From: Candidatus Omnitrophota bacterium
Lineage (GTDB): Bacteria > Omnitrophota > Gorgyraeia > Gygaellales > Profunditerraquicolaceae
Length of the DNA: 64,000 bases
Assembly: GCA_028717885.1 (NCBI GenBank)
Contig: JAQUMX010000006.1
Location: 206-64,205, forward strand
Direction: 5' to 3'
Shown: one piece after another, positions 12,047 to 61,333 of the stretch
Numbering within the stretch: the stretch's first letter is position 1
Layout: each line of letters opens with the position of its first letter
Notes under the pieces: model-generated
What the model was told of the DNA's origin: nothing
Seen by the model: the letters and a program-made list of their open reading frames with translations, nothing else
The model's database searches: none
Translations under genes and position numbers: made by a program

Positions 12047-12102
12047 GACACCCGGCCTTATCTGTTAGGCCGGTGTTCATTCGTATGAAAGGAGCAACAA
12101 AA
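12047..12102 (+). repeat. Family-3 cassette: GC hairpin plus conserved SD leader (copy 1, before rpsP)
   Basis: ACACCCGGCCT (12048-12058) / AGGCCGGTGT (12067-12076) then TCATTCGTATGAAAGGAG; near-identical cassette at 48455-48513. Confidence 0.7.
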
Positions 12103-21196: not shown

Positions 21197-21225
21197 TAAA
21201 ACCGGAAGCGGCAAAGAAAAGAGAA

Positions 21226-21285
21226 TGACCCATTCGCAAAATTCGCTCAGGGTCATCCCGAGCGAATCAAAAGGACCGAGGGATG
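21226..21285 (+). repeat. Family-2 double-hairpin cassette (copy 1, ends in the secE start codon)
   Basis: TGACCC (21226-21231)/GGGTCA (21250-21255) and CATCCC (21254-21259)/GGGATG (21280-21285); ATG 21283 is the secE start. Confidence 0.65.
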
Positions 21286-21546
21286 AATTTTTTTACGAGT
21301 AATTTAAAAGCTATAATTTTAAGCGTCGTAGTAATCGGCATCGTTCTTTTGGTAGTTAAGAATTACAAGAAGATAAAGCAATTTTTAACCGAAGTGAAAC
21401 AGGAGCTGGAGAAGGTATCCTGGTCAACCCGGGAGGAATTAATCGGTTCAACTGTAGTAGTGATCACCATCACCGCAATCACTGCAGTATTCATCGGAAT
21501 AATCGATCTTTTTCTCTCCAAAATCTTGAGCGTAATGTTTAAGTGA
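21283..21546 (+). CDS. secE: Preprotein translocase subunit SecE (with an extra N-terminal TM)
   Basis: C-terminal half E.KKV.WP(S)..E pattern (ELEKVSWSTREEL) plus TM; position before nusG. Confidence 0.85.
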   Translation: MNFFTSNLKAIILSVVVIGIVLLVVKNYKKIKQFLTEVKQELEKVSWSTREELIGSTVVVITITAITAVFIGIIDLFLSKILSVMFK

Positions 21547-21692
21547 GGACACAAGTTATGGTGCATTATATTAAAAATAATATCAGCGACATAACTTGTA
21601 AGTCCGAACTTATCCTTGCACCAATTGGCGCAAGGATTAATTCGCATAGCAACTTATGTTCACTTACGTTCCATAAGTTGCGTGCTCATTAA
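21543..21692 (+). repeat. Family-1 structured intercistronic element (copy A, secE|nusG)
   Basis: GTGAGGACA...AAGTCCGAACTTATCC core; hairpins 21547-21605, 21612-21637, 21649-21681; embedded 44-codon frame 21558-21692. Confidence 0.75.
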
Positions 21693-22220: not shown

Positions 22221-22645
22221 TGGCTAAGAAAATCGTCGCACAGATTAAATTACACGTTCCTGCAGGCCAGGCAAACCCTGCGCCTCCGGTTGGCCCGGCA
22301 TTAGGACAGCATGGCGTGAACATTATGCAGTTCTGCAAGCAGTTTAATGACCAGACCAAAGGCAGGGAAGGCTTGATTTTACCTGCGGTTATCAGTGTAT
22401 ATGAAGACAAGACCTTTACCTTTATTATTAAGAGCCCGCCGTCTTCAGTACTTTTGAAGCGTGCAGCAAACCTGGCAAAGGCTTCCGGCCAGGCAGGAAA
22501 AGAAACTATCGGTACAGTCACCAGGAAGCAGGTAGAGGAAATCGCTAAATTAAAGGCCAAAGATTTAAATACCGCTGACCTTGAAGAAGCGATCAGGATT
22601 ATCAGCGGTACAGCCCGCAGCATGGGCATTACGGTAGAGGGATGA
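22220..22645 (+). CDS. rplK: 50S ribosomal protein L11
   Basis: [26 protein letters not shown] block. Confidence 0.97.
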
Positions 22646-23322
22646 AGAAACCAAGCAAAAGATACCAGGAATCAATAAAGTTAGTTGACAAAGATAAGGC
22701 GTTTCAGCTTAAAGAAGCGGTTTCTATTTTAAAGACAATGAAGCCGACGAAATTCGATGAGTCTGTAGATTTGCATTTAAGTTTGAATGTAGACCCCAAA
22801 AAATCAGAACAGATGGTGCGCGGTACGGTAGTACTGCCGCACGGAACCGGCAAAAAGGTTCGGGTTGCGGTCTTCTGTAAAGGCGAGCATGAAAAACAGG
22901 CTAAGGATGCCCAGGCAGATTTCGTGGGCGGCCTGGAATTAATCGAAAAAGTAGGCGCAGGTTTCCTGGATTTTGACTGTGCAATTGCTACTCCGGAAAT
23001 GATGAAAGATTTAAGCAAGCTAGGTAAGGTCTTAGGGCCGCGCGGCCTTATGCCAAGCCCCAAGACTGGAACAGTTACCAATGACATTGTCAGGGCAATC
23101 GAAGACGTGCGCAAAGGAAAAGTAGAATTCCGCGTAGATAAGCAGGGCGGAATGCATTTAAGCGTAGGAAAAATTTCTTTCTCCGAGGACAAGATATTGG
23201 AAAATGCCTCAAGGGTAATCGAGGCAATTAACGAAGCCAAGCCCGCATCAGTAAAAGGAAAATTCGTGCGCAGCCTCTTTATTTCTACCACGATGAACCC
23301 GGGATTAAGGATTTCAACATGA
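22642..23322 (+). CDS. rplA: 50S ribosomal protein L1
   Basis: FDESVDL...L.VDP(K/R)K.(D/E)Q.VRG...LPHGTGK pattern. Confidence 0.96.
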
Positions 23323-23377
23323 CCCTTAAACAAACTGCTCGTGGGAATGGTGCGCGAGCAAAGCGAGTCGAACCATG
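23320..23377 (+). repeat. Family-2 cassette (copy 2, rplA stop to rplJ start)
   Basis: TGACCC...ATGGTGCGCGAGCAAAGCGAGTCGAACCATG; TGA is the rplA stop, terminal ATG is the rplJ start; 30/33 nt identical to 56265-56297. Confidence 0.7.
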
Positions 23378-23914
23378 AAGAAAATCGGACTTATAGTTAA
23401 GGAAGTTTCGGAAGCCCGTTTAAAGAACAGCCTGAAAGGCTCGAACAGTTTTTTTGTGGTGAAATATTCCGGTTTATCCAGCCCCGATATTACGGCATTG
23501 CGCCTTTCTTTAAAGGGTTCGCAAGCCGACTTTTTTGTGGTAAAGAATGCCGTAGCCAGGCGCGCTTTGAAAAATGCCGGGATGGAAAATGCGGTAAAGT
23601 ATATTGATGGCCCATGCGGGATAATCTTTGCTAAAGATGAGCCGGTAGATGTTTCCAAGGTTCTATATAATTTCCTTAAAGATCATGAAAAGTTCCAACT
23701 GGGCGGCGGATTTTTAAAGGACCAGATTCTGGAAAAGAAGGATATCGAAGCATTGGCAAAACTGCCTTCCAAACAGGCGTTGCGCCAGCAATTAGTCGTA
23801 GCTTTAAATGCCCCGATTTCCAAATTTGTCCGCGCGTTGAATGGTACCTTAAGCAAATTCGTAATTTGCTTAGATCAAATAAAAGAAAAAAAATCAAAAG
23901 AGGGGGGTAAGTAA
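23375..23914 (+). CDS. rplJ: 50S ribosomal protein L10
   Basis: 179-aa ORF in the L10 position with typical L10 pattern (LR..L...G..F.VVKN.(L/V)A.RA). Confidence 0.93.
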
Positions 23915-35993: not shown

Positions 35994-36293
35994 ATGCAAA
36001 AGATTCGCATCAAACTAAAAGCCTATGACCATCGCCTGCTTGATCAGGCGGTAGCCGAGATCGTGGAAACTGTCCGGCGTACCGGAGCGAAAATTTCCGG
36101 GCCCGTACCGTTGCCCACGAAGCACGAGATTTATACGGTGCTGCGTTCGCCGGTAATCGATAAAAAATCCCGCGAGCAGTTCGAATTGGCGACACACAAG
36201 AGGCTGATTGATATTTTTGAACCTACATCCAAGACGATCGATTCCTTAAGGAAATTAAACCTTCCGGCAGGCGTGGATGTGGAAATTAAATGA
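35994..36293 (+). CDS. rpsJ: 30S ribosomal protein S10
   Basis: [16 protein letters not shown] start; ATG 35994 one nt after the tuf stop (track start 35985 rejected). Confidence 0.95.
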
Positions 36294-36401
36294 GGACATA
36301 ATTTATGGCGCGTAAGCGACATAAATTATAAGTCCGAATTTATCCCGCACAGCTTATATTAAAAGCTGTTGAGTGCGGGAATAACTTGCAAGGAAACTCA
36401 C
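36291..36401 (+). repeat. Family-1 structured intercistronic element (copy B, rpsJ|rplC)
   Basis: ATGAGGACATAATTTATGGCGCGTAAGCGACATAAATTATAAGTCCGAATTTATCCCG; hairpin 36294-36335 with GTAA tetraloop; second hairpin 36344-36379; mini-ORF 36305-36331. Confidence 0.75.
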
Positions 36402-42895: not shown

Positions 42896-43441
42896 ATGTC
42901 TTTAATTGGTAAAAAACCTATTGCAATACCGAGTGGAGTAAAAGTACAGGCAGAAAACGGCCAGCTTATGGTAGAAGGGCCGAAGGGAAAAATTGCGCGC
43001 CCGTTTTCTCACCGTTTAAATTTGGAATTAAAAGAGAATCAGGTTTTTGTGAAGCGTGTAGGCGATTCCAAGCTGGATAAATCCTTGCACGGCCTCTTCC
43101 GCGCTTTGATTGCCAATATGGTTAAGGGTGTAACTGACGGCTACAGCAAAGAATTGGAAATTATAGGCACCGGTTTTAAAGCTCAGATACAGGGGAATAA
43201 ATTGGTCTTGACCGTGGGTTTTTCGCATCCGGTTAATTTCACGATCCCCGAAGGCATTAAGATCGAAGCGCCTAAAGCAACTCACCTGGTGATTAGGGGC
43301 ATTGATAAAGAAAAGGTCGGAGAGATCGCTGCGGAGATCCGCGCGGTTTATCCTCCCGAACCATATAAAGGTAAAGGTATCCGCTATGTCGGCGAATACG
43401 TGAAGAAAAAGATCGGAAAGGCACAAGCAACTACTAAATAA
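42896..43441 (+). CDS. rplF: 50S ribosomal protein L6
   Basis: S.IGK.PI.IP.GV start and EPYKGKGIRY C-terminal block. Confidence 0.96.
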   Translation: MSLIGKKPIAIPSGVKVQAENGQLMVEGPKGKIARPFSHRLNLELKENQVFVKRVGDSKLDKSLHGLFRALIANMVKGVTDGYSKELEIIGTGFKAQIQGNKLVLTVGFSHPVNFTIPEGIKIEAPKATHLVIRGIDKEKVGEIAAEIRAVYPPEPYKGKGIRYVGEYVKKKIGKAQATTK

Positions 43442-43553
43442 GTGAGGACATAATTTATGGAGCGTAAGCGACATAAATTATAAGTCCGAACTTATCCCGA
43501 GTCCAAAGAGATTTTATAGTTGTAAACGAGGGATCTAAAAAGGTCATAGGAAT
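43442..43553 (+). repeat. Family-1 structured intercistronic element (copy C, rplF|rplR)
   Basis: GTGAGGACATAATTTATGGAGCGTAAGCGACATAAATTATAAGTCCGAACTTATCCCG; hairpin 43446-43487 with GTAA tetraloop; mini-ORF 43457-43483. Confidence 0.75.
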
Positions 43554-48029: not shown

Positions 48030-48455
48030 ATGCCAAGAATTTTAGGTGTGGACATCCCGAAGGAAAAAAGAATTGAGATCGCCCTGTGCTATCTTTTCGG
48101 CGTGGGCAGGTCTTTAGCAAACAACATCCTTAAAGAAGCGCAGATTTCTCCCGATAAGCGGGCAAAGGATTTAAGCGAAGAAGAGATTTTGCGCATTACC
48201 AACATCATTCAGAAAGGTTACCGCGTAGAAGGAGATTTACGCCGTGACATTTCGCAGAATATCAAGAGATTAGTCGATATCGGTTCCTGGAGAGGTTCGC
48301 GCCACAAAAAAGGCCTTCCTTGCAGAGGGCAGCGTACGCGTACAAATTCCAGGACACGTAAGGGCCCGCGTAAAGGCGGTATGGCGGTAATCAAGAAAGC
48401 GGATACCGCACCTAAAAAGTCAGCGCCTGCAGCAGCAAAGCCGGCCGGTAAATAA
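48030..48455 (+). CDS. rpsM: 30S ribosomal protein S13 (short Lys/Ala/Pro-rich C-terminal tail)
   Basis: M(P/A)RI.GVD(I)P..KR(I)EIAL.Y(L)(F)G(V)G start. Confidence 0.96.
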
Positions 48456-48513
48456 CACGCGGCCTTAATGGATAGGCCGGTGTGCATTTGTATGCAAGGA
48501 GGAATTAAGTTTT
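48455..48513 (+). repeat. Family-3 cassette: GC hairpin plus conserved SD leader (copy 2, before rpsK)
   Basis: ACACGCGGCCT (48455-48465) / AGGCCGGTGTG (48474-48484) then CATTTGTATGCAAGGAGG; matches 12047-12102. Confidence 0.7.
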
Positions 48514-55160: not shown

Positions 55161-56240
55161 ATGCATAAAATAACTTTAATCCCCGGTGACGGGATCGGGC
55201 CGGAAGTAGCAGATGCAGCCAGAAGGTGTATCGACGCTACCGGAGTAAAAATCGAATGGGAAGAAGCAATTGCCGGGCAATTGGCTTTGGAAAAACAAGG
55301 AAGCCTTTTACCGGATAGCGTGATTGCTTCGATCAAAAAGAATAAAGTCGCGTTAAAGGGGCCGATTGTTACGCCTATCGGCACGGGTTTTCGCTCGGTG
55401 AATGTTGCTATTCGCCATGCTTTGGATTTATTTGCCTGCGTGCGCCCGGCAAAATCATACGCCGGTGTGCGAAGCAATTACCGCGATATTGATTTGGTGA
55501 TTGTGCGTGAGAACAGCGAAGATTTATACGCAGGGATTGAGTTTGAGGAAGGTAAGTCGGAAACGATAAATCTGATTGAGCAAATAGAAAAATACAGCAA
55601 AAAGAAAATTCGCCCGGATTCCGGGATTTCAATTAAGCCGATTTCCAAGACCGCTTCCGAGAGGATCGTGCGTTTTGCTTTTGAATATGCCTTAAAAAAT
55701 AACCGGAAAAAAGTTACTGCCATTCAAAAAGCAAATATCATGAAATTTACCGATGGCCTTTTCCTGAAAGTTGCCCGCGAAGTGGCAAAAGAATATGAAG
55801 GAAAGGTAGTTTTTGAAGAAGGCCTGGTAGATAATATGTCCATGCAGCTGGTGCAGAAGCCGCACAATTACGATGTGTTGGTATTGCCTAACCTTTACGG
55901 AGATATTCTTTCCGATCTTTGTGCCGGATTGATCGGAGGCTTAGGTATTGCTCCGGGCGCAAATATCGGAGAAGAGGCAGCGGTTTTTGAAGCGGTACAT
56001 GGATCTGCTCCCAAATATACCGGCCAGAATAAAGTTAATCCTACGGCAATGATTCTTTCCGGAGTGTTGATGCTGCGCCATATCAAAGAAGAAAAAGCCG
56101 CAGACAAATTAGAAGCGGCGGTAAAGGCAGTGTTAGCAGAAGGTAAATCCGTTACTTACGATTTAAAGCCTGACCGTAACGATCCTACCAGTGTAGGCAC
56201 ACGGGAAATGGCTGACGCAATCATTGCGAAACTAACATGA
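55161..56240 (+). CDS. Isocitrate/homoisocitrate dehydrogenase-like beta-decarboxylating dehydrogenase
   Basis: [15 protein letters not shown](I)R..LDL(F)A.VRP, (V)(I)VREN(S)EDLY(A)[10 protein letters not shown](L)..GL(I)GGLG blocks. Confidence 0.85.
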
Positions 56241-56297
56241 CCTTCCGCAAAACTTTGTTTAGGGTCATGGTGCGCGAGTGAAACGAGTCGAACCATG
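56238..56297 (+). repeat. Family-2 cassette (copy 3, ICDH-like stop to mdh start)
   Basis: TGACCT...AGGGTCATGGTGCGCGAGTGAAACGAGTCGAACCATG; CATGGT (56266-56271)/ACCATG (56292-56297). Confidence 0.7.
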
Positions 56298-57215
56298 AAA
56301 ATTTCTATTATCGGTGCCGGAAATGTCGGCGGAACTGCAGCTATGCGCCTTGCCCAGGAGGGTATAGGCGATATTTTTTTAATTGATATCGCTAAGGGCT
56401 TAGCACAGGGAAAAGCTTTTGATTTGGACGACGCTCGCCCGATTCTAAAACATCATTACCATATTACAGGCACCGAGGATTTCGCAGCAGTAAAAGATTC
56501 GGAGATTGTGGTGGTTACAGCCGGCTTGGCAAGAAAACCCGGAATGACCCGCGAGGACCTTTTAAATAAAAACGCCGCGATCTTAAAAAGTATCTGCCTG
56601 GATTTAAAAAAACTCTCTCCCAAGGCAATCCTTATTATTGTTACTAATCCGCTGGATATTATGACTTACCTGGCATTGAAAGTAACCGGCTTTAAAGCGA
56701 ACCGGGTAATTGGCATGGGAGTCAGCCTTGACGCTGCAAGGTTTGCAAATCTCATTAGCCAGGAATTAAAGGTTTCCAGTGCTGATGTAGAGGCAATGGT
56801 AATCGGCGGCCACGGAGAAGGGATGTTGCCTTTAGCGCGTTTTAGCAATATTAAAGGTGTGGCGTTGGATGAATTTATCGGCGAAGATAAAATTAATGAG
56901 TTAGTGCAGCGTACTTTTGACCGCGGAAAAGAAATTGTTTCATTATTAGGCAGCGGCAGCGCTTTTTATGCTCCTTCTGCGGCAATTGCGCAAATGGTAA
57001 AAATCATTGCCAAGGATGAGAAGCGTACTATCGGCGCCTGCGCCTACTTAAACGGCGAATATGGATTAGAAGACCTCTGTATCGGAGTACCGGTGCGTTT
57101 AGGCAATAATGGCATTGAGGAAATTATTAAATTAGATTTGAATAAACAGGAAACCGAAGCCCTTCTTAAAGCAGCGGATCAAATTAAGGAACAATATAAA
57201 AACTTAACCATCTAA
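56295..57215 (+). CDS. mdh: Malate dehydrogenase (LDH-like family)
   Basis: IIGAGNVGG Rossmann motif; substrate-loop AGLARKPGMTRED has Arg at the position that is Gln in lactate dehydrogenases; catalytic (I)GGHG. Confidence 0.9.
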   Translation: MKISIIGAGNVGGTAAMRLAQEGIGDIFLIDIAKGLAQGKAFDLDDARPILKHHYHITGTEDFAAVKDSEIVVVTAGLARKPGMTREDLLNKNAAILKSICLDLKKLSPKAILIIVTNPLDIMTYLALKVTGFKANRVIGMGVSLDAARFANLISQELKVSSADVEAMVIGGHGEGMLPLARFSNIKGVALDEFIGEDKINELVQRTFDRGKEIVSLLGSGSAFYAPSAAIAQMVKIIAKDEKRTIGACAYLNGEYGLEDLCIGVPVRLGNNGIEEIIKLDLNKQETEALLKAADQIKEQYKNLTI

Positions 57216-59353: not shown

Positions 59354-61333
59354 ATGCCTATTAAAGCTAAGCTTTTTTTATTTTTAATTTTCTTTTCTTT
59401 TTCATCTTTTGCTTTTGCCGACAATCTGATCAAAAATCCGGACATGGAACAAGGGTCCCCTACAGCCTGGACCAGTTCTGTGAACAAAACTGCCAATCGA
59501 GCGCTTTACGCTTCTGACAGCTATCATTCCGCTGCGCGTTCCCTAAAAATCATCAATACGGTTTCCGGTATTTCCAATTGGAAAGGTAATCGCTATACTT
59601 TTAAATCAGGATCTCGGCCCAAAAAAATCTATTATTCCGCCTGGGTAAAAGGAGAGAATATTTCGGTTACAGGCGCGGTTTTTTTAAACCTGGTAGTAAC
59701 CTTTACAGACGGCAGGAGGCAGGTTATTAGTGACTTAAGGTTTCCTTCCGGCACCTATAATTGGACACAGGTGAGTTTAAATAAAACTTTTACCAAGTCG
59801 GTAAAATCCTTCCAGCCCTATTTTTATTTTTCCGGCGGCATCGGTACAGCCTGGTTCGATGACCTATCTATTGGCACGAACGGCTCCAATAATTATGCTT
59901 TGAATCCGAATATGGAGGAAGGCAAGCCCCTTAATTGGGCTGCTTATACTACATCCTCAAATAAAGCGCTTTATGCTGCAGATAATTTTCATTCCGGAGC
60001 GCGTTCTTTGGAGATCATTAATTTATTGCCGCGAGTTTCCTATTGGAAAGGGGATGTTGTTAAGTTTAGTAAGCCATACCCAAAACAATTTAAGGCTTCG
60101 GTTTGGGCAAAAGGCGCAAGCATTTCTGCTAATTCTATAGTGGCAATGTACTTCAGGGTAGTTTTTGATAATAATTCTTCCAAGGCCTTTTACGCTGACC
60201 AAAGATTCCCTTCCGGCACTTTTGATTGGATTGAAAAGCAAGACATTAAAACCTTTACCAGGGGGATAAAATCCATTCAGCCGTGTGTTTATTTTAGCGC
60301 AGGTAGAGGCACAGCCTGGTTCGATGATTTTAGCCTTTCGACACAGATTAATACTAATCCGCAGATTACAAATGTAGTTCCTGAAGATAATTCGGATATC
60401 CTCCTGGGCGCTAATGTCAATATTACTGTTATTGCTACAGATAGCGATAATGATGTATTGGAATACCAATTCTCTATTGCCGGCACAGTTAAGCAGGCGT
60501 GGTCAAGCGCAAATACTTATGCCTGGGTTACTCAAACTTCTGACCTTGGCTTAAACAGCGTTTTATGCGAAGTGCGGGATAACAAAGGAGGCACGGACTC
60601 AAAAACCATTAGCTTACGCGTGCTCAATCCAAGCGTAGAAGAGATCTTGCAGAAAGTAGCCAATAATTATGCTTTAGTCTCTGACTTAACCGCAGATATG
60701 ACCTTAACCTCAACTCTTAACGGCGAGCCTTTTGGACAAACAGATTACTGTAAATATTATTTTAAAGCGCCGAGCAAAGAGAGGACTGATTCTTTCTCTG
60801 ATGCCACACGTTTAACTAAGGTCGAAGCTAATATTATGAATGGCTCTAATATGTATTTGATAGATACAATAAATAAAATAGTACAGCCGGTTGATCTTCT
60901 GAATGAAGCAGGAATCAATAGTGCGCAATTTAGCCAAATGGACTTGTATTATAACCAGAGTAATTTCTTAGATAACCATACGGTTACGAAAAACACAGAA
61001 AAGTCGGATTTAGTCAATTTCGTCGTGACTTTTGACGCCGTTCCTAAAGAGCAGAATAATCTTTACTCGAAATTAGAGTTATATATTGATTATAAGAAAG
61101 GATTATTGAAGAAGTCTTGTTTATATAAGCAGAATACCTCCGGCCAATCAGAATTGCTACAGACTATCGAAACCGTCGAATCTCAGCAGATGCCTAATGG
61201 AGCGTGGGTTGTAAAGAAAATGCAAAAAACTCCAGTTTTAAAATCAGGAAATTTAATCGATACTGCAAGCTACGAGAACCAACAAGTAAATATCGGCTTA
61301 AACGATACAGATTTTGATCCAGAACAACAATAG
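59354..61333 (+). CDS. Secreted multidomain protein: 2 x jelly-roll/CBM-like repeat, Ig-like domain, LolA-like C-terminal domain
   Basis: Signal peptide ...FAFA-DN; two ~155-aa paralogous repeats ending GTAWFDD(L/F)S(I/L); PKD/Ig-like ATDSDNDVLEYQF segment; C-terminal domain pattern resembles lipoprotein-sorting/LolA-like proteins (tentative). Confidence 0.6.
   Translation: MPIKAKLFLFLIFFSFSSFAFADNLIKNPDMEQGSPTAWTSSVNKTANRALYASDSYHSAARSLKIINTVSGISNWKGNRYTFKSGSRPKKIYYSAWVKGENISVTGAVFLNLVVTFTDGRRQVISDLRFPSGTYNWTQVSLNKTFTKSVKSFQPYFYFSGGIGTAWFDDLSIGTNGSNNYALNPNMEEGKPLNWAAYTTSSNKALYAADNFHSGARSLEIINLLPRVSYWKGDVVKFSKPYPKQFKASVWAKGASISANSIVAMYFRVVFDNNSSKAFYADQRFPSGTFDWIEKQDIKTFTRGIKSIQPCVYFSAGRGTAWFDDFSLSTQINTNPQITNVVPEDNSDILLGANVNITVIATDSDNDVLEYQFSIAGTVKQAWSSANTYAWVTQTSDLGLNSVLCEVRDNKGGTDSKTISLRVLNPSVEEILQKVANNYALVSDLTADMTLTSTLNGEPFGQTDYCKYYFKAPSKERTDSFSDATRLTKVEANIMNGSNMYLIDTINKIVQPVDLLNEAGINSAQFSQMDLYYNQSNFLDNHTVTKNTEKSDLVNFVVTFDAVPKEQNNLYSKLELYIDYKKGLLKKSCLYKQNTSGQSELLQTIETVESQQMPNGAWVVKKMQKTPVLKSGNLIDTASYENQQVNIGLNDTDFDPEQQ
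59423..60364 (+). repeat. Intragenic tandem duplication of a ~155-codon domain
   Basis: Residues ~24-176 and ~181-337 align colinearly (NP.ME.G.P..W...., ALYA.D..HS.ARSL.IIN, WKG, RFPSGT(Y/F).W, GTAWFDD). Confidence 0.8.

Follow-up and report, generated by a model that had tools for sequence, protein, structure and literature searches.

Small palindromic inserts within operons (MITEs such as ERIC, Correia/NEMIS, RUP and BOX) are co-transcribed with their neighbors, form structures in the mRNA and may affect expression; they use duplications of TA or of other sequences, and their positions do not coincide with stop and start codons. To our knowledge, none of them rebuilds an ATGA overlap or carries a relay ORF of the kind considered below. 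REPs lie after the 3′ ends of genes and are lineage-specific, and the genome holds a cognate RAYT gene, usually flanked by REPs. A conserved GTAG or CGTC tag marks one end of these repeats (Di Nocera et al., 2013, PMC3733652). The miniature elements of the IS200/IS605 type (PATEs) insert in a specific orientation beside a fixed tetra- or pentanucleotide, leave no other scar, excise seamlessly, and have subterminal hairpins instead of terminal inverted repeats. At the level of translation, genes that overlap at ATGA or TGATG are coupled by termination-reinitiation (Huber et al., 2019, PMC6728339). The 64-kb stretch of DNA analyzed here as a whole (the window), from a Candidatus Omnitrophota bacterium, contains a small mobile hairpin element that has features of each of these systems and is apparently undescribed. 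It is referred to as the ATGA element. No description of it was found in the literature, although coverage was incomplete and an earlier description is therefore possible, and no Rfam family matches it in the window or in 20 canonical loci, at gathering or relaxed thresholds (E ≤ 10).

In its canonical form, the ATGA element is a pair of hairpin units in inverted arrangement, ATGAyCC-TTCGAC-[x]-GCTCA-GGrTCAT followed by ATGG-TGAGC-GA-[mini-hairpin]-GA-GTCGAA-CCATGA. In the best-kept copies, unit 1 reads (CC)ATGAyCC-TTCGAC-[2-3 nt or variable hairpin]-GCTCA-GGrTCAT, and unit 2, which overlaps it, reads ATGG-TGAGC-GA-[G Y GAA R C]-GA-GTCGAA-CCAT-GA. At their cores, the two units are reverse complements of each other, and the central GGGTCATGG is complementary to both element ends. 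The element measures 52-58 nt in these Omnitrophota genomes, and two-module copies elsewhere span 53-125 nt from ATG to ATG. Metagenome contigs were scanned with the pattern ATGGTGNGCGAG-N(3-7)-CGAGNNNAACCAT, in which ATGG...CCAT is fixed, so that the sample is biased to start-codon copies (the core without the S2 arms is TGAGCGA-N-GAGTCGAA); an earlier contig scan with GGTGCGCGAG-N(3-7)-CGAGTCGAACC had returned only chance matches in high-GC coding DNA. At least 120 contigs, ranging from 31 to 71% GC, hold matches. Among the matches listed, 103 distinct copies have the canonical core and 13 matches are coding look-alikes. One copy with a GC content of 65% (L077) was assigned to Omnitrophota by its S9 homologues. 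A covariance model, R1, was built from 40 copies and detects three copies in the window.

The stems covary. In 76 sense-strand matches, the third pair of stem S1 is C-G in 42 and U-A in 21, while the closing pair of the mini-hairpin is C-G in 44 and U-A in 27. Over the whole aligned set, antisense-strand matches included, 95% of the cells are paired vs. 73% in shuffles, a comparison that favors structure because the alignment was fitted to the model. Compensatory variants of stem S2 occur as ATCCC/GGGAT (secE copy) and ACGG/CCGT (Nostoc copy), and stems also carry paired insertions (GAACCC/GGGTTC, GAGCC/GGCTC). A four-way-junction fold combining TTCGAC:GTCGAA with GCTCA:TGAGC is not supported, since most of the variants found at these positions disrupt the pairing. 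Four loci hold nested or tandem elements (L024 3584-3649, L046 1651-1772, L085 968-1034, L050 1122-1241): a whole ATGA element sits within the variable loop of another unit, and adjoining elements have an ATGA in common. These arrangements suggest that the variable loop may itself be an insertion site. Unit 1 of a high-GC copy (L042 146-208) gave a sub-threshold Rfam match to the S15-Halobacteria leader (16 bits vs. 49 required), which was judged to be noise; it may be due to chance, or some candidate leaders could be repeats of the ATGA-element kind.

Two of the window copies lie between the genes for L1 and L10 (rplA|rplJ) and between those for isocitrate dehydrogenase and malate dehydrogenase (ICDH|mdh, identified by NCBIfam). 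An earlier note on this DNA had read the two spacers as one cassette running from stop to start codon, and this holds. A 33-nt core, ATGGTGCGCGAG..A.CGAGTCGAACCATGAA, found at 23347-23379 and 56267-56299, is identical at 30 of 33 positions (0 matches in 100 dinucleotide-preserving shuffles); both upstream genes end in ACA TGA (rplA, 23320-22; ICDH, 56238-40), and the downstream ATGs at 23375 (rplJ) and 56295 (mdh) are each embedded in ACCATGA. The rplA|rplJ copy extends from the left to the right ATGA over 23319..23378 of the forward strand (R1 66.7 bits), with the rplA stop TGA (23320-22) at its left end and the rplJ start ATG (23375-77) at its right. Its unit 1 (23321..23346, forward strand, alignment A1) is decayed, reading GACCC-TTAAAC-AAACT-GCTCG-TGGGA for the canonical GACCC-TTCGAC-x-GCTCA-GGGTC. 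Unit 2 (23347..23376, forward strand) reads ATGG-TGCGC-GA-[GCAAAGC]-GA-GTCGAA-CCAT; its S2 stem pairs 23347-50 with 23373-76, and ATGGT at 23347-51 is complementary to ACCAT at 23372-76, as had been pointed out.

The ICDH|mdh copy (56237..56298, forward strand, R1 74 bits) is bounded by the ICDH stop (56238-40) and the mdh start (56295-97). Folding places its unit 1 hairpin, CATGACCTT...AGGGTCATG, at 56236..56269 of the forward strand, with the S1 stem extended across the central CATG, and by alignment unit 2 (56267..56296, forward strand) reads ATGG-TGCGC-GA-[GTGAAAC]-GA-GTCGAA-CCAT. The likeness had been described as one of two whole cassettes, and in this respect the earlier account needs amending. 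The 5′ halves of the rplJ and mdh copies have only ATGACC...GGG in common, because they are decayed versions of the conserved first hairpin unit; relative to the canonical sequence, the window copies carry TTAAAC or TCCGCA in place of TTCGAC, and TGCGC in place of TGAGC. Furthermore, a third, more diverged copy is present between tRNA-Trp and secE (21225..21286, forward strand; R1 33.9 bits, E 5e-8, match span 21221-21290). Its left ATGA occupies 21225-28 and its right ATGA, at 21283-86, contains the secE start; unit 1 reads GACCC-ATTCGC-..-GCTCA-GGGTC and the S2 stem of unit 2 is ATCCC/GGGAT. Over the whole window, Rfam reports two tRNAs only. The lack of a Shine-Dalgarno sequence before rplJ, also remarked on earlier, extends to mdh: the anti-SD duplexes are -4.4 and -2.5 kcal/mol, respectively, vs. 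-6 kcal/mol or below for 30 of the 62 window genes.

The L10 protein encoded in the window has a 100% identical counterpart in a Candidatus Omnitrophica MAG. Three sites were found both filled and empty in related genomes. The rplA|rplJ site is filled in the window; in L019 (GCA_028688215.1), whose L10 is 88% identical, the two genes overlap as ...GTCATATGAAGAAAATC with zero spacer, and L021, L022 and L070 (L10 81% identical) carry a variant cassette. At ICDH|mdh, the relatives L143 (98% amino-acid identity in MDH) and L144 (85%) have a bare ATGA overlap, AAACTAAGATGAAGATTTCC, where the window reads AAACTAACATGA, then 57 nt ending in ...GAACCATGA, then AAATTTCT. The rplK/rplA overlap is an empty target site in the window (ATGA at 22642..22645 of the forward strand, within GTAGAGGGATGAAGAAACC) and is occupied in the sister population L083, which reads GTAGAGGGATGA, a 52-nt insert CCCGTTGACC...GACGAACCATGA, and then AGAAACC, with flanks identical to those of the window. 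At all three sites, the sole difference between the alleles is a clean insert of 52-58 nt with ATGA on both sides. This can be read as a target-site duplication, and it fits equally well an insertion between AT and GA without duplication, the element being then described as GACCC...CCAT. The comparisons therefore identify the cassette as an insertion, a mobile element whose presence varies between near-identical genomes, which lay beyond the view of the earlier note. Judged from these alleles, at least two of the three sites are recent gains, and the clean empty rplA|rplJ site of L019 among filled relatives may represent a precise loss.

The window contains other repeats. A second cassette family occurs at secE|nusG, rpsJ|rplC and rplF|rplR (21540-21692, 36284-36347 and 43436-43499). 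It reads TAAGT-GAGGA-[10-bp stem capped by GA-GC-GUAA-GC-GA]-AGTCCGA-ACTTA, has a layout like that of unit 2 of the ATGA element, and shows compensatory stem changes between copies. In L083 and L019, secE and nusG simply overlap at ATGA, and the second-family cassette is therefore also an insertion. Model R1 does not match this family, and no copy was seen in the 149 loci examined. A third repeat (12048-12097 and 48455-48504, 82% identical) forms a GC-rich hairpin, ACACCCGGCC...GGCCGGTGT, located directly 3′ of a gene end and followed by the AAGGAG Shine-Dalgarno sequence of the next gene. A direct repeat with 78-80% identity (59731-59862 and 60196-60327, 465 nt apart) lies in a 659-aa ORF (59354-61333) and is probably an internal protein repeat.

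Beyond the window, the ATGA element is associated with gene starts of many kinds. Among the matches listed, CCAT is followed by G in 81 of 103 copies, and of the 72 copies that could be evaluated, 62 have a 3′-end ATG that begins an ORF of 60 codons or more, compared with 38.5% of random ATGs on the same contigs. All nine downstream ORFs tested agree exactly with the protein calls of public collections. The 62 downstream proteins from the matches listed fall into 52 BLAST clusters, so the element is not gene-specific; to judge from their N-terminal sequences, they would include ribosomal proteins, ABC-transporter ATPases and products of other housekeeping genes. The portable, generic module postulated in the earlier note is thus borne out, with at least 120 copies before unrelated genes. 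Of 38 two-unit copies, 24 have a left TGA that serves as the stop of a long upstream ORF. ATGA is still present in the remaining two-unit copies and in the secE copy, and must therefore be part of the element or of its target, not merely a sequence selected as a stop. About two-thirds of the copies in this pattern-biased sample are at gene starts, vs. roughly 40% expected from the ATGA sites of the window. A minority of metagenome copies lie antisense, directly past the stop of a gene. Four copies without a 3′ ATG are antisense to a gene (L043 4192-4221, L054 10697-10726, L066 1279-1310, L051 529-558); there, the stop of the gene abuts the CCAT end (TAATGG on the gene strand), which constitutes a second insertion context.

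Relatives in other phyla were found by a PLSDB search with the canonical sequence. Plasmid pn2 of Nostoc sp. UHCC 0926 holds one two-unit copy that is not at a start codon (L148 1500-1550). It reads TGACCC-TTCCAC-TGC-GCTCA-GGGTCA-ACGG-TGAGC-GAA-GCCGAA-CCGT, with TTGAC on both sides and ACGG/CCGT as its S2 stem. In Sphingomonas parapaucimobilis YK209, an extragenic repeat of about 100 nt is present in at least 214 places over nine replicons (L147 1488-1592; L149 24709-24790, 41549). Its sequence is GCC-TTCGAC-TTC-GCTCA-GGC ... GCC-TGAGC-GAA-GTCGAA-GGC, and no copy is annotated. The hairpin unit is therefore cross-phylum, and the form associated with ATGA and start codons appears so far in Omnitrophota-type contigs.

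Like REPs and REPINs, the ATGA element is non-coding and non-autonomous, is built of short imperfect palindromic units arranged as an inverted doublet (S-TTCGAC-x-GCTCA-S′, then S-TGAGC-x-GTCGAA-S′), and has covarying stems, a fixed core, and copies whose presence or absence differs between close relatives; dispersed copies are many over the metagenome matches, and within one genome three lie in the 64 kb of the window. In contrast to REPs, its ends are ATGA.../...CCAT(GA), without a GTAG or CGTC tag, it lies within operons exactly between stop and start, and its core is conserved across phyla. The core strings are absent from the paper by Di Nocera et al. (2013, PMC3733652). Nor was a RAYT found: a crude Y1-transposase regex applied to 815 kb of loci revealed no transposase or RAYT-like gene near any copy, and E. 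coli RayT gave no tblastn match against the Sphingomonas records with the related repeat. With PATEs, the element appears to share orientation-specific insertion beside a fixed tetranucleotide without any other scar, subterminal hairpins, and an internal TCAT, within GGGTCATGG, that is complementary to target and ends. It differs from them in that no TnpA was found and in that the putative guide pairing is plain Watson-Crick, of up to 9 nt. The strand- and ATGA-specific insertion, the absence of any other scar and the complementarity of TCAT to the target point to a single-strand, structure-guided mobilization of the IS200/IS605 or REP type, a resemblance and not a demonstrated membership. Operon MITEs are likewise small palindromic inserts that fold in the transcript; unlike them, the ATGA element is placed on stop and start codons. 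The loci examined showed no candidate for a parent IS from which it might derive.

Insertions, copy number, conserved architecture with covarying stems and generic downstream genes are all matters of observation. As a whole, they are probably best explained by a non-autonomous mobile element that inserts at ATGA and whose insert has been selected for ribosome relay. The element would insert in a single orientation at the tetranucleotide ATGA of gene starts, mostly at stop/start overlaps. Insertion into an overlap would rebuild both codons: since ATGA is found on both sides afterwards, the upstream gene retains its TGA and the downstream gene its ATG, which would make the element tolerable inside essential operons. 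Ribosomes terminating or initiating at the left AUGA would read a short ORF that crosses the hairpins, terminate on the right AUGA or no more than 25 nt 5′ of it, and then reinitiate at the true start. The weak stem S2 over the start and the competing S1 both use the central GGGTCATGG, and in this way downstream translation would stay dependent on upstream translation. The proposal resembles known coupling in that the ancestral junctions are ATGA overlaps and termination-reinitiation would be kept, but here it would run through an inserted, structured relay ORF of 18-40 codons. We infer that the transcribed insert is tolerated, and has been shaped by selection, because of this relay.

The evidence for a relay lies in the reading frames. 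The old rplJ Shine-Dalgarno sequence, AAGGA (23307-11), which serves the start in L019, is now 7 nt 5′ of the left ATG, and the rplJ copy encodes a mini-ORF of 19 codons whose TGA overlaps the rplJ ATG. The mini-ORF of the mdh copy (56237-56281) stops at the loop TGA, 13 nt 5′ of the mdh ATG. In 45 distinct two-unit copies among the matches listed, the ATG-to-ATG distance modulo 3 is 2 in 27, 1 in 14 and 0 in 4 (9:7:2 by distinct lengths), and the copies are related by descent, so that these and the following frame statistics overstate independence. In 25 of these copies, the mini-ORF opened by the left ATG stops exactly on the right ATGA; in 8 it ends at the loop TGA (-16), in another 8 at the TGA of GGTGAGC (-24/-25), and in only 2 does it read past the true start. 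Loops of 5 nt are TGAAA in 8/8 of the class with remainder 1 vs. 5/25 of the class with remainder 2 (Fisher p 9e-5); in the former class, the TGAAA loop supplies the in-frame stop. Within the variable unit 1, 2 stops are in frame vs. 22 out of frame, and 0 vs. 17 in the class with remainder 2. This suggests that ribosomes may start at the left AUG and reach the real start, preserving termination-reinitiation coupling. Two copies speak against a relay: the left ORF of the secE copy continues for 25 codons within secE in another frame, and the mini-ORF of the rplK|rplA copy in L083 stops after 3 codons. Two other ideas about the translation of the insert were discarded, namely translational bypassing (hopping), which would fuse L1 to L10, and a conserved small protein on either strand, since variation in loop length shifts the frame and the second copy has an early stop.

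A purely selfish DNA repeat of REPIN/MITE type, with no role at the RNA level, is a less likely alternative. The ATGA junctions would then be harmless sites and the downstream gene would be translated despite the insert. Presence or absence between near-identical genomes is what such a repeat would give, as are the Sphingomonas units, which are ordinary extragenic repeats away from starts, and the copies antisense directly past a stop. Variation is also symmetric, with TTCGRC in unit 1 and GYCGAA in unit 2, as expected of inverted DNA copies; the TTCGGC and GCCGAA variants are mostly independent of each other, and the long-range pairing TTCGAC:GTCGAA is thus without covariation support, which hints that the two units may be recognized at the DNA level instead of folding together into a single RNA structure. 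However, a repeat acting only as DNA would not readily account for the depletion of in-frame stops, for a left ORF that in nearly every copy ends no later than the real start, or for the excess of copies at gene starts, and the mismatches in the stems are G.U wobbles on the sense strand only.

It is improbable that the element is a cis-acting RNA switch or processing site, whether it acts by a hairpin that sequesters the start, through RNase cleavage, or as a small self-cleaving ribozyme that would free a leaderless mRNA for the downstream gene. The core TGAGC-GA...GA-GTCGAA, with its tandem GA beside the capped mini-hairpin, is conserved beyond the needs of a simple stem, GGGTCATGG is able to pair with either end, and the start lacks a Shine-Dalgarno sequence, all of which would suit such a device. 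Against it, the mini-hairpin is dispensable (L076 and L130 read ATGG-TGAGC-GAA-GTCGAA-CCAT), the element is missing from close relatives, and no Rfam family matches; hammerhead, twister, pistol, hatchet and HDV-like models gave nothing on the 20 canonical loci at gathering or E ≤ 10. A hammerhead-like reading of GA-[stem]-GA was also dropped, as by eye the CUGANGA/GAAA core is absent. The sequestration of the start codon proposed in the earlier note finds little support. Stem S2 over the start, though conserved, has a length of only 4-5 bp, and the stronger upstream S1 hairpin competes with it for the central CATGG; the L021 copy has its ATG outside the stem, 2 nt past the ACCAT arm. In predicted ensembles the rplJ start codon is unpaired with a probability of 0.76-0.88, and the mdh AUG is partly paired, so sequestration appears weak in these folds. 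What survives of the translation-control module of that note is the constraint apparently acting at the level of translation, visible in the frame and stop pattern of the mini-ORF.

Little credence is given to a self-guided mobile unit in which GGGTCATGG would position a cut and rejoining at AT|GA, at the level of single-stranded DNA or, more radically, of RNA. This 9-mer could pair with the element's own two ends (CCAT and GACCC) and with the ATGA target, and insertion and excision would be seamless; at the RNA level, the AUGA overlap would be restored in the mRNA as by a minimal bacterial intron. An L10(L12)4 autoregulatory leader or other gene-specific ribosomal-protein leader, which the cassette had been thought to replace, shares with the element only the position 5′ of rplJ and is refuted: the Rfam search proposed in the note gave no L10_leader (RF00557) match at gathering, nor at E ≤ 10 on 23200-23480, without likeness in sequence or structure, the element also stands before mdh, secE and dozens of other, unrelated genes, and the rplJ site is empty in L019, where the ATGA overlap of rplA and rplJ leaves no room for a leader.

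Compared with REP/REPIN doublets and transcribed MITEs, the closest kinds, the new features of the ATGA element are its exact placement on stop and start codons, the rebuilding of both and, apparently, a relay reading frame. A mobile element can thus colonize the most constrained sites of a compact genome, the 4-nt stop/start overlaps within ribosomal-protein and central-metabolism operons, in that it rebuilds both codons and, apparently, hands ribosomes across the insert. It thereby offers a natural and portable system for testing termination-reinitiation coupling. In annotation, spacers of this kind easily pass for leaders or riboswitches, and metagenome-assembled genomes may wrongly list translations of the mini-ORF as small hypothetical proteins. 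The element also points to a putative insertion machinery with specificity for ATGA in an uncultivated phylum, and units related to those of the element occur in Alphaproteobacteria and Cyanobacteria.
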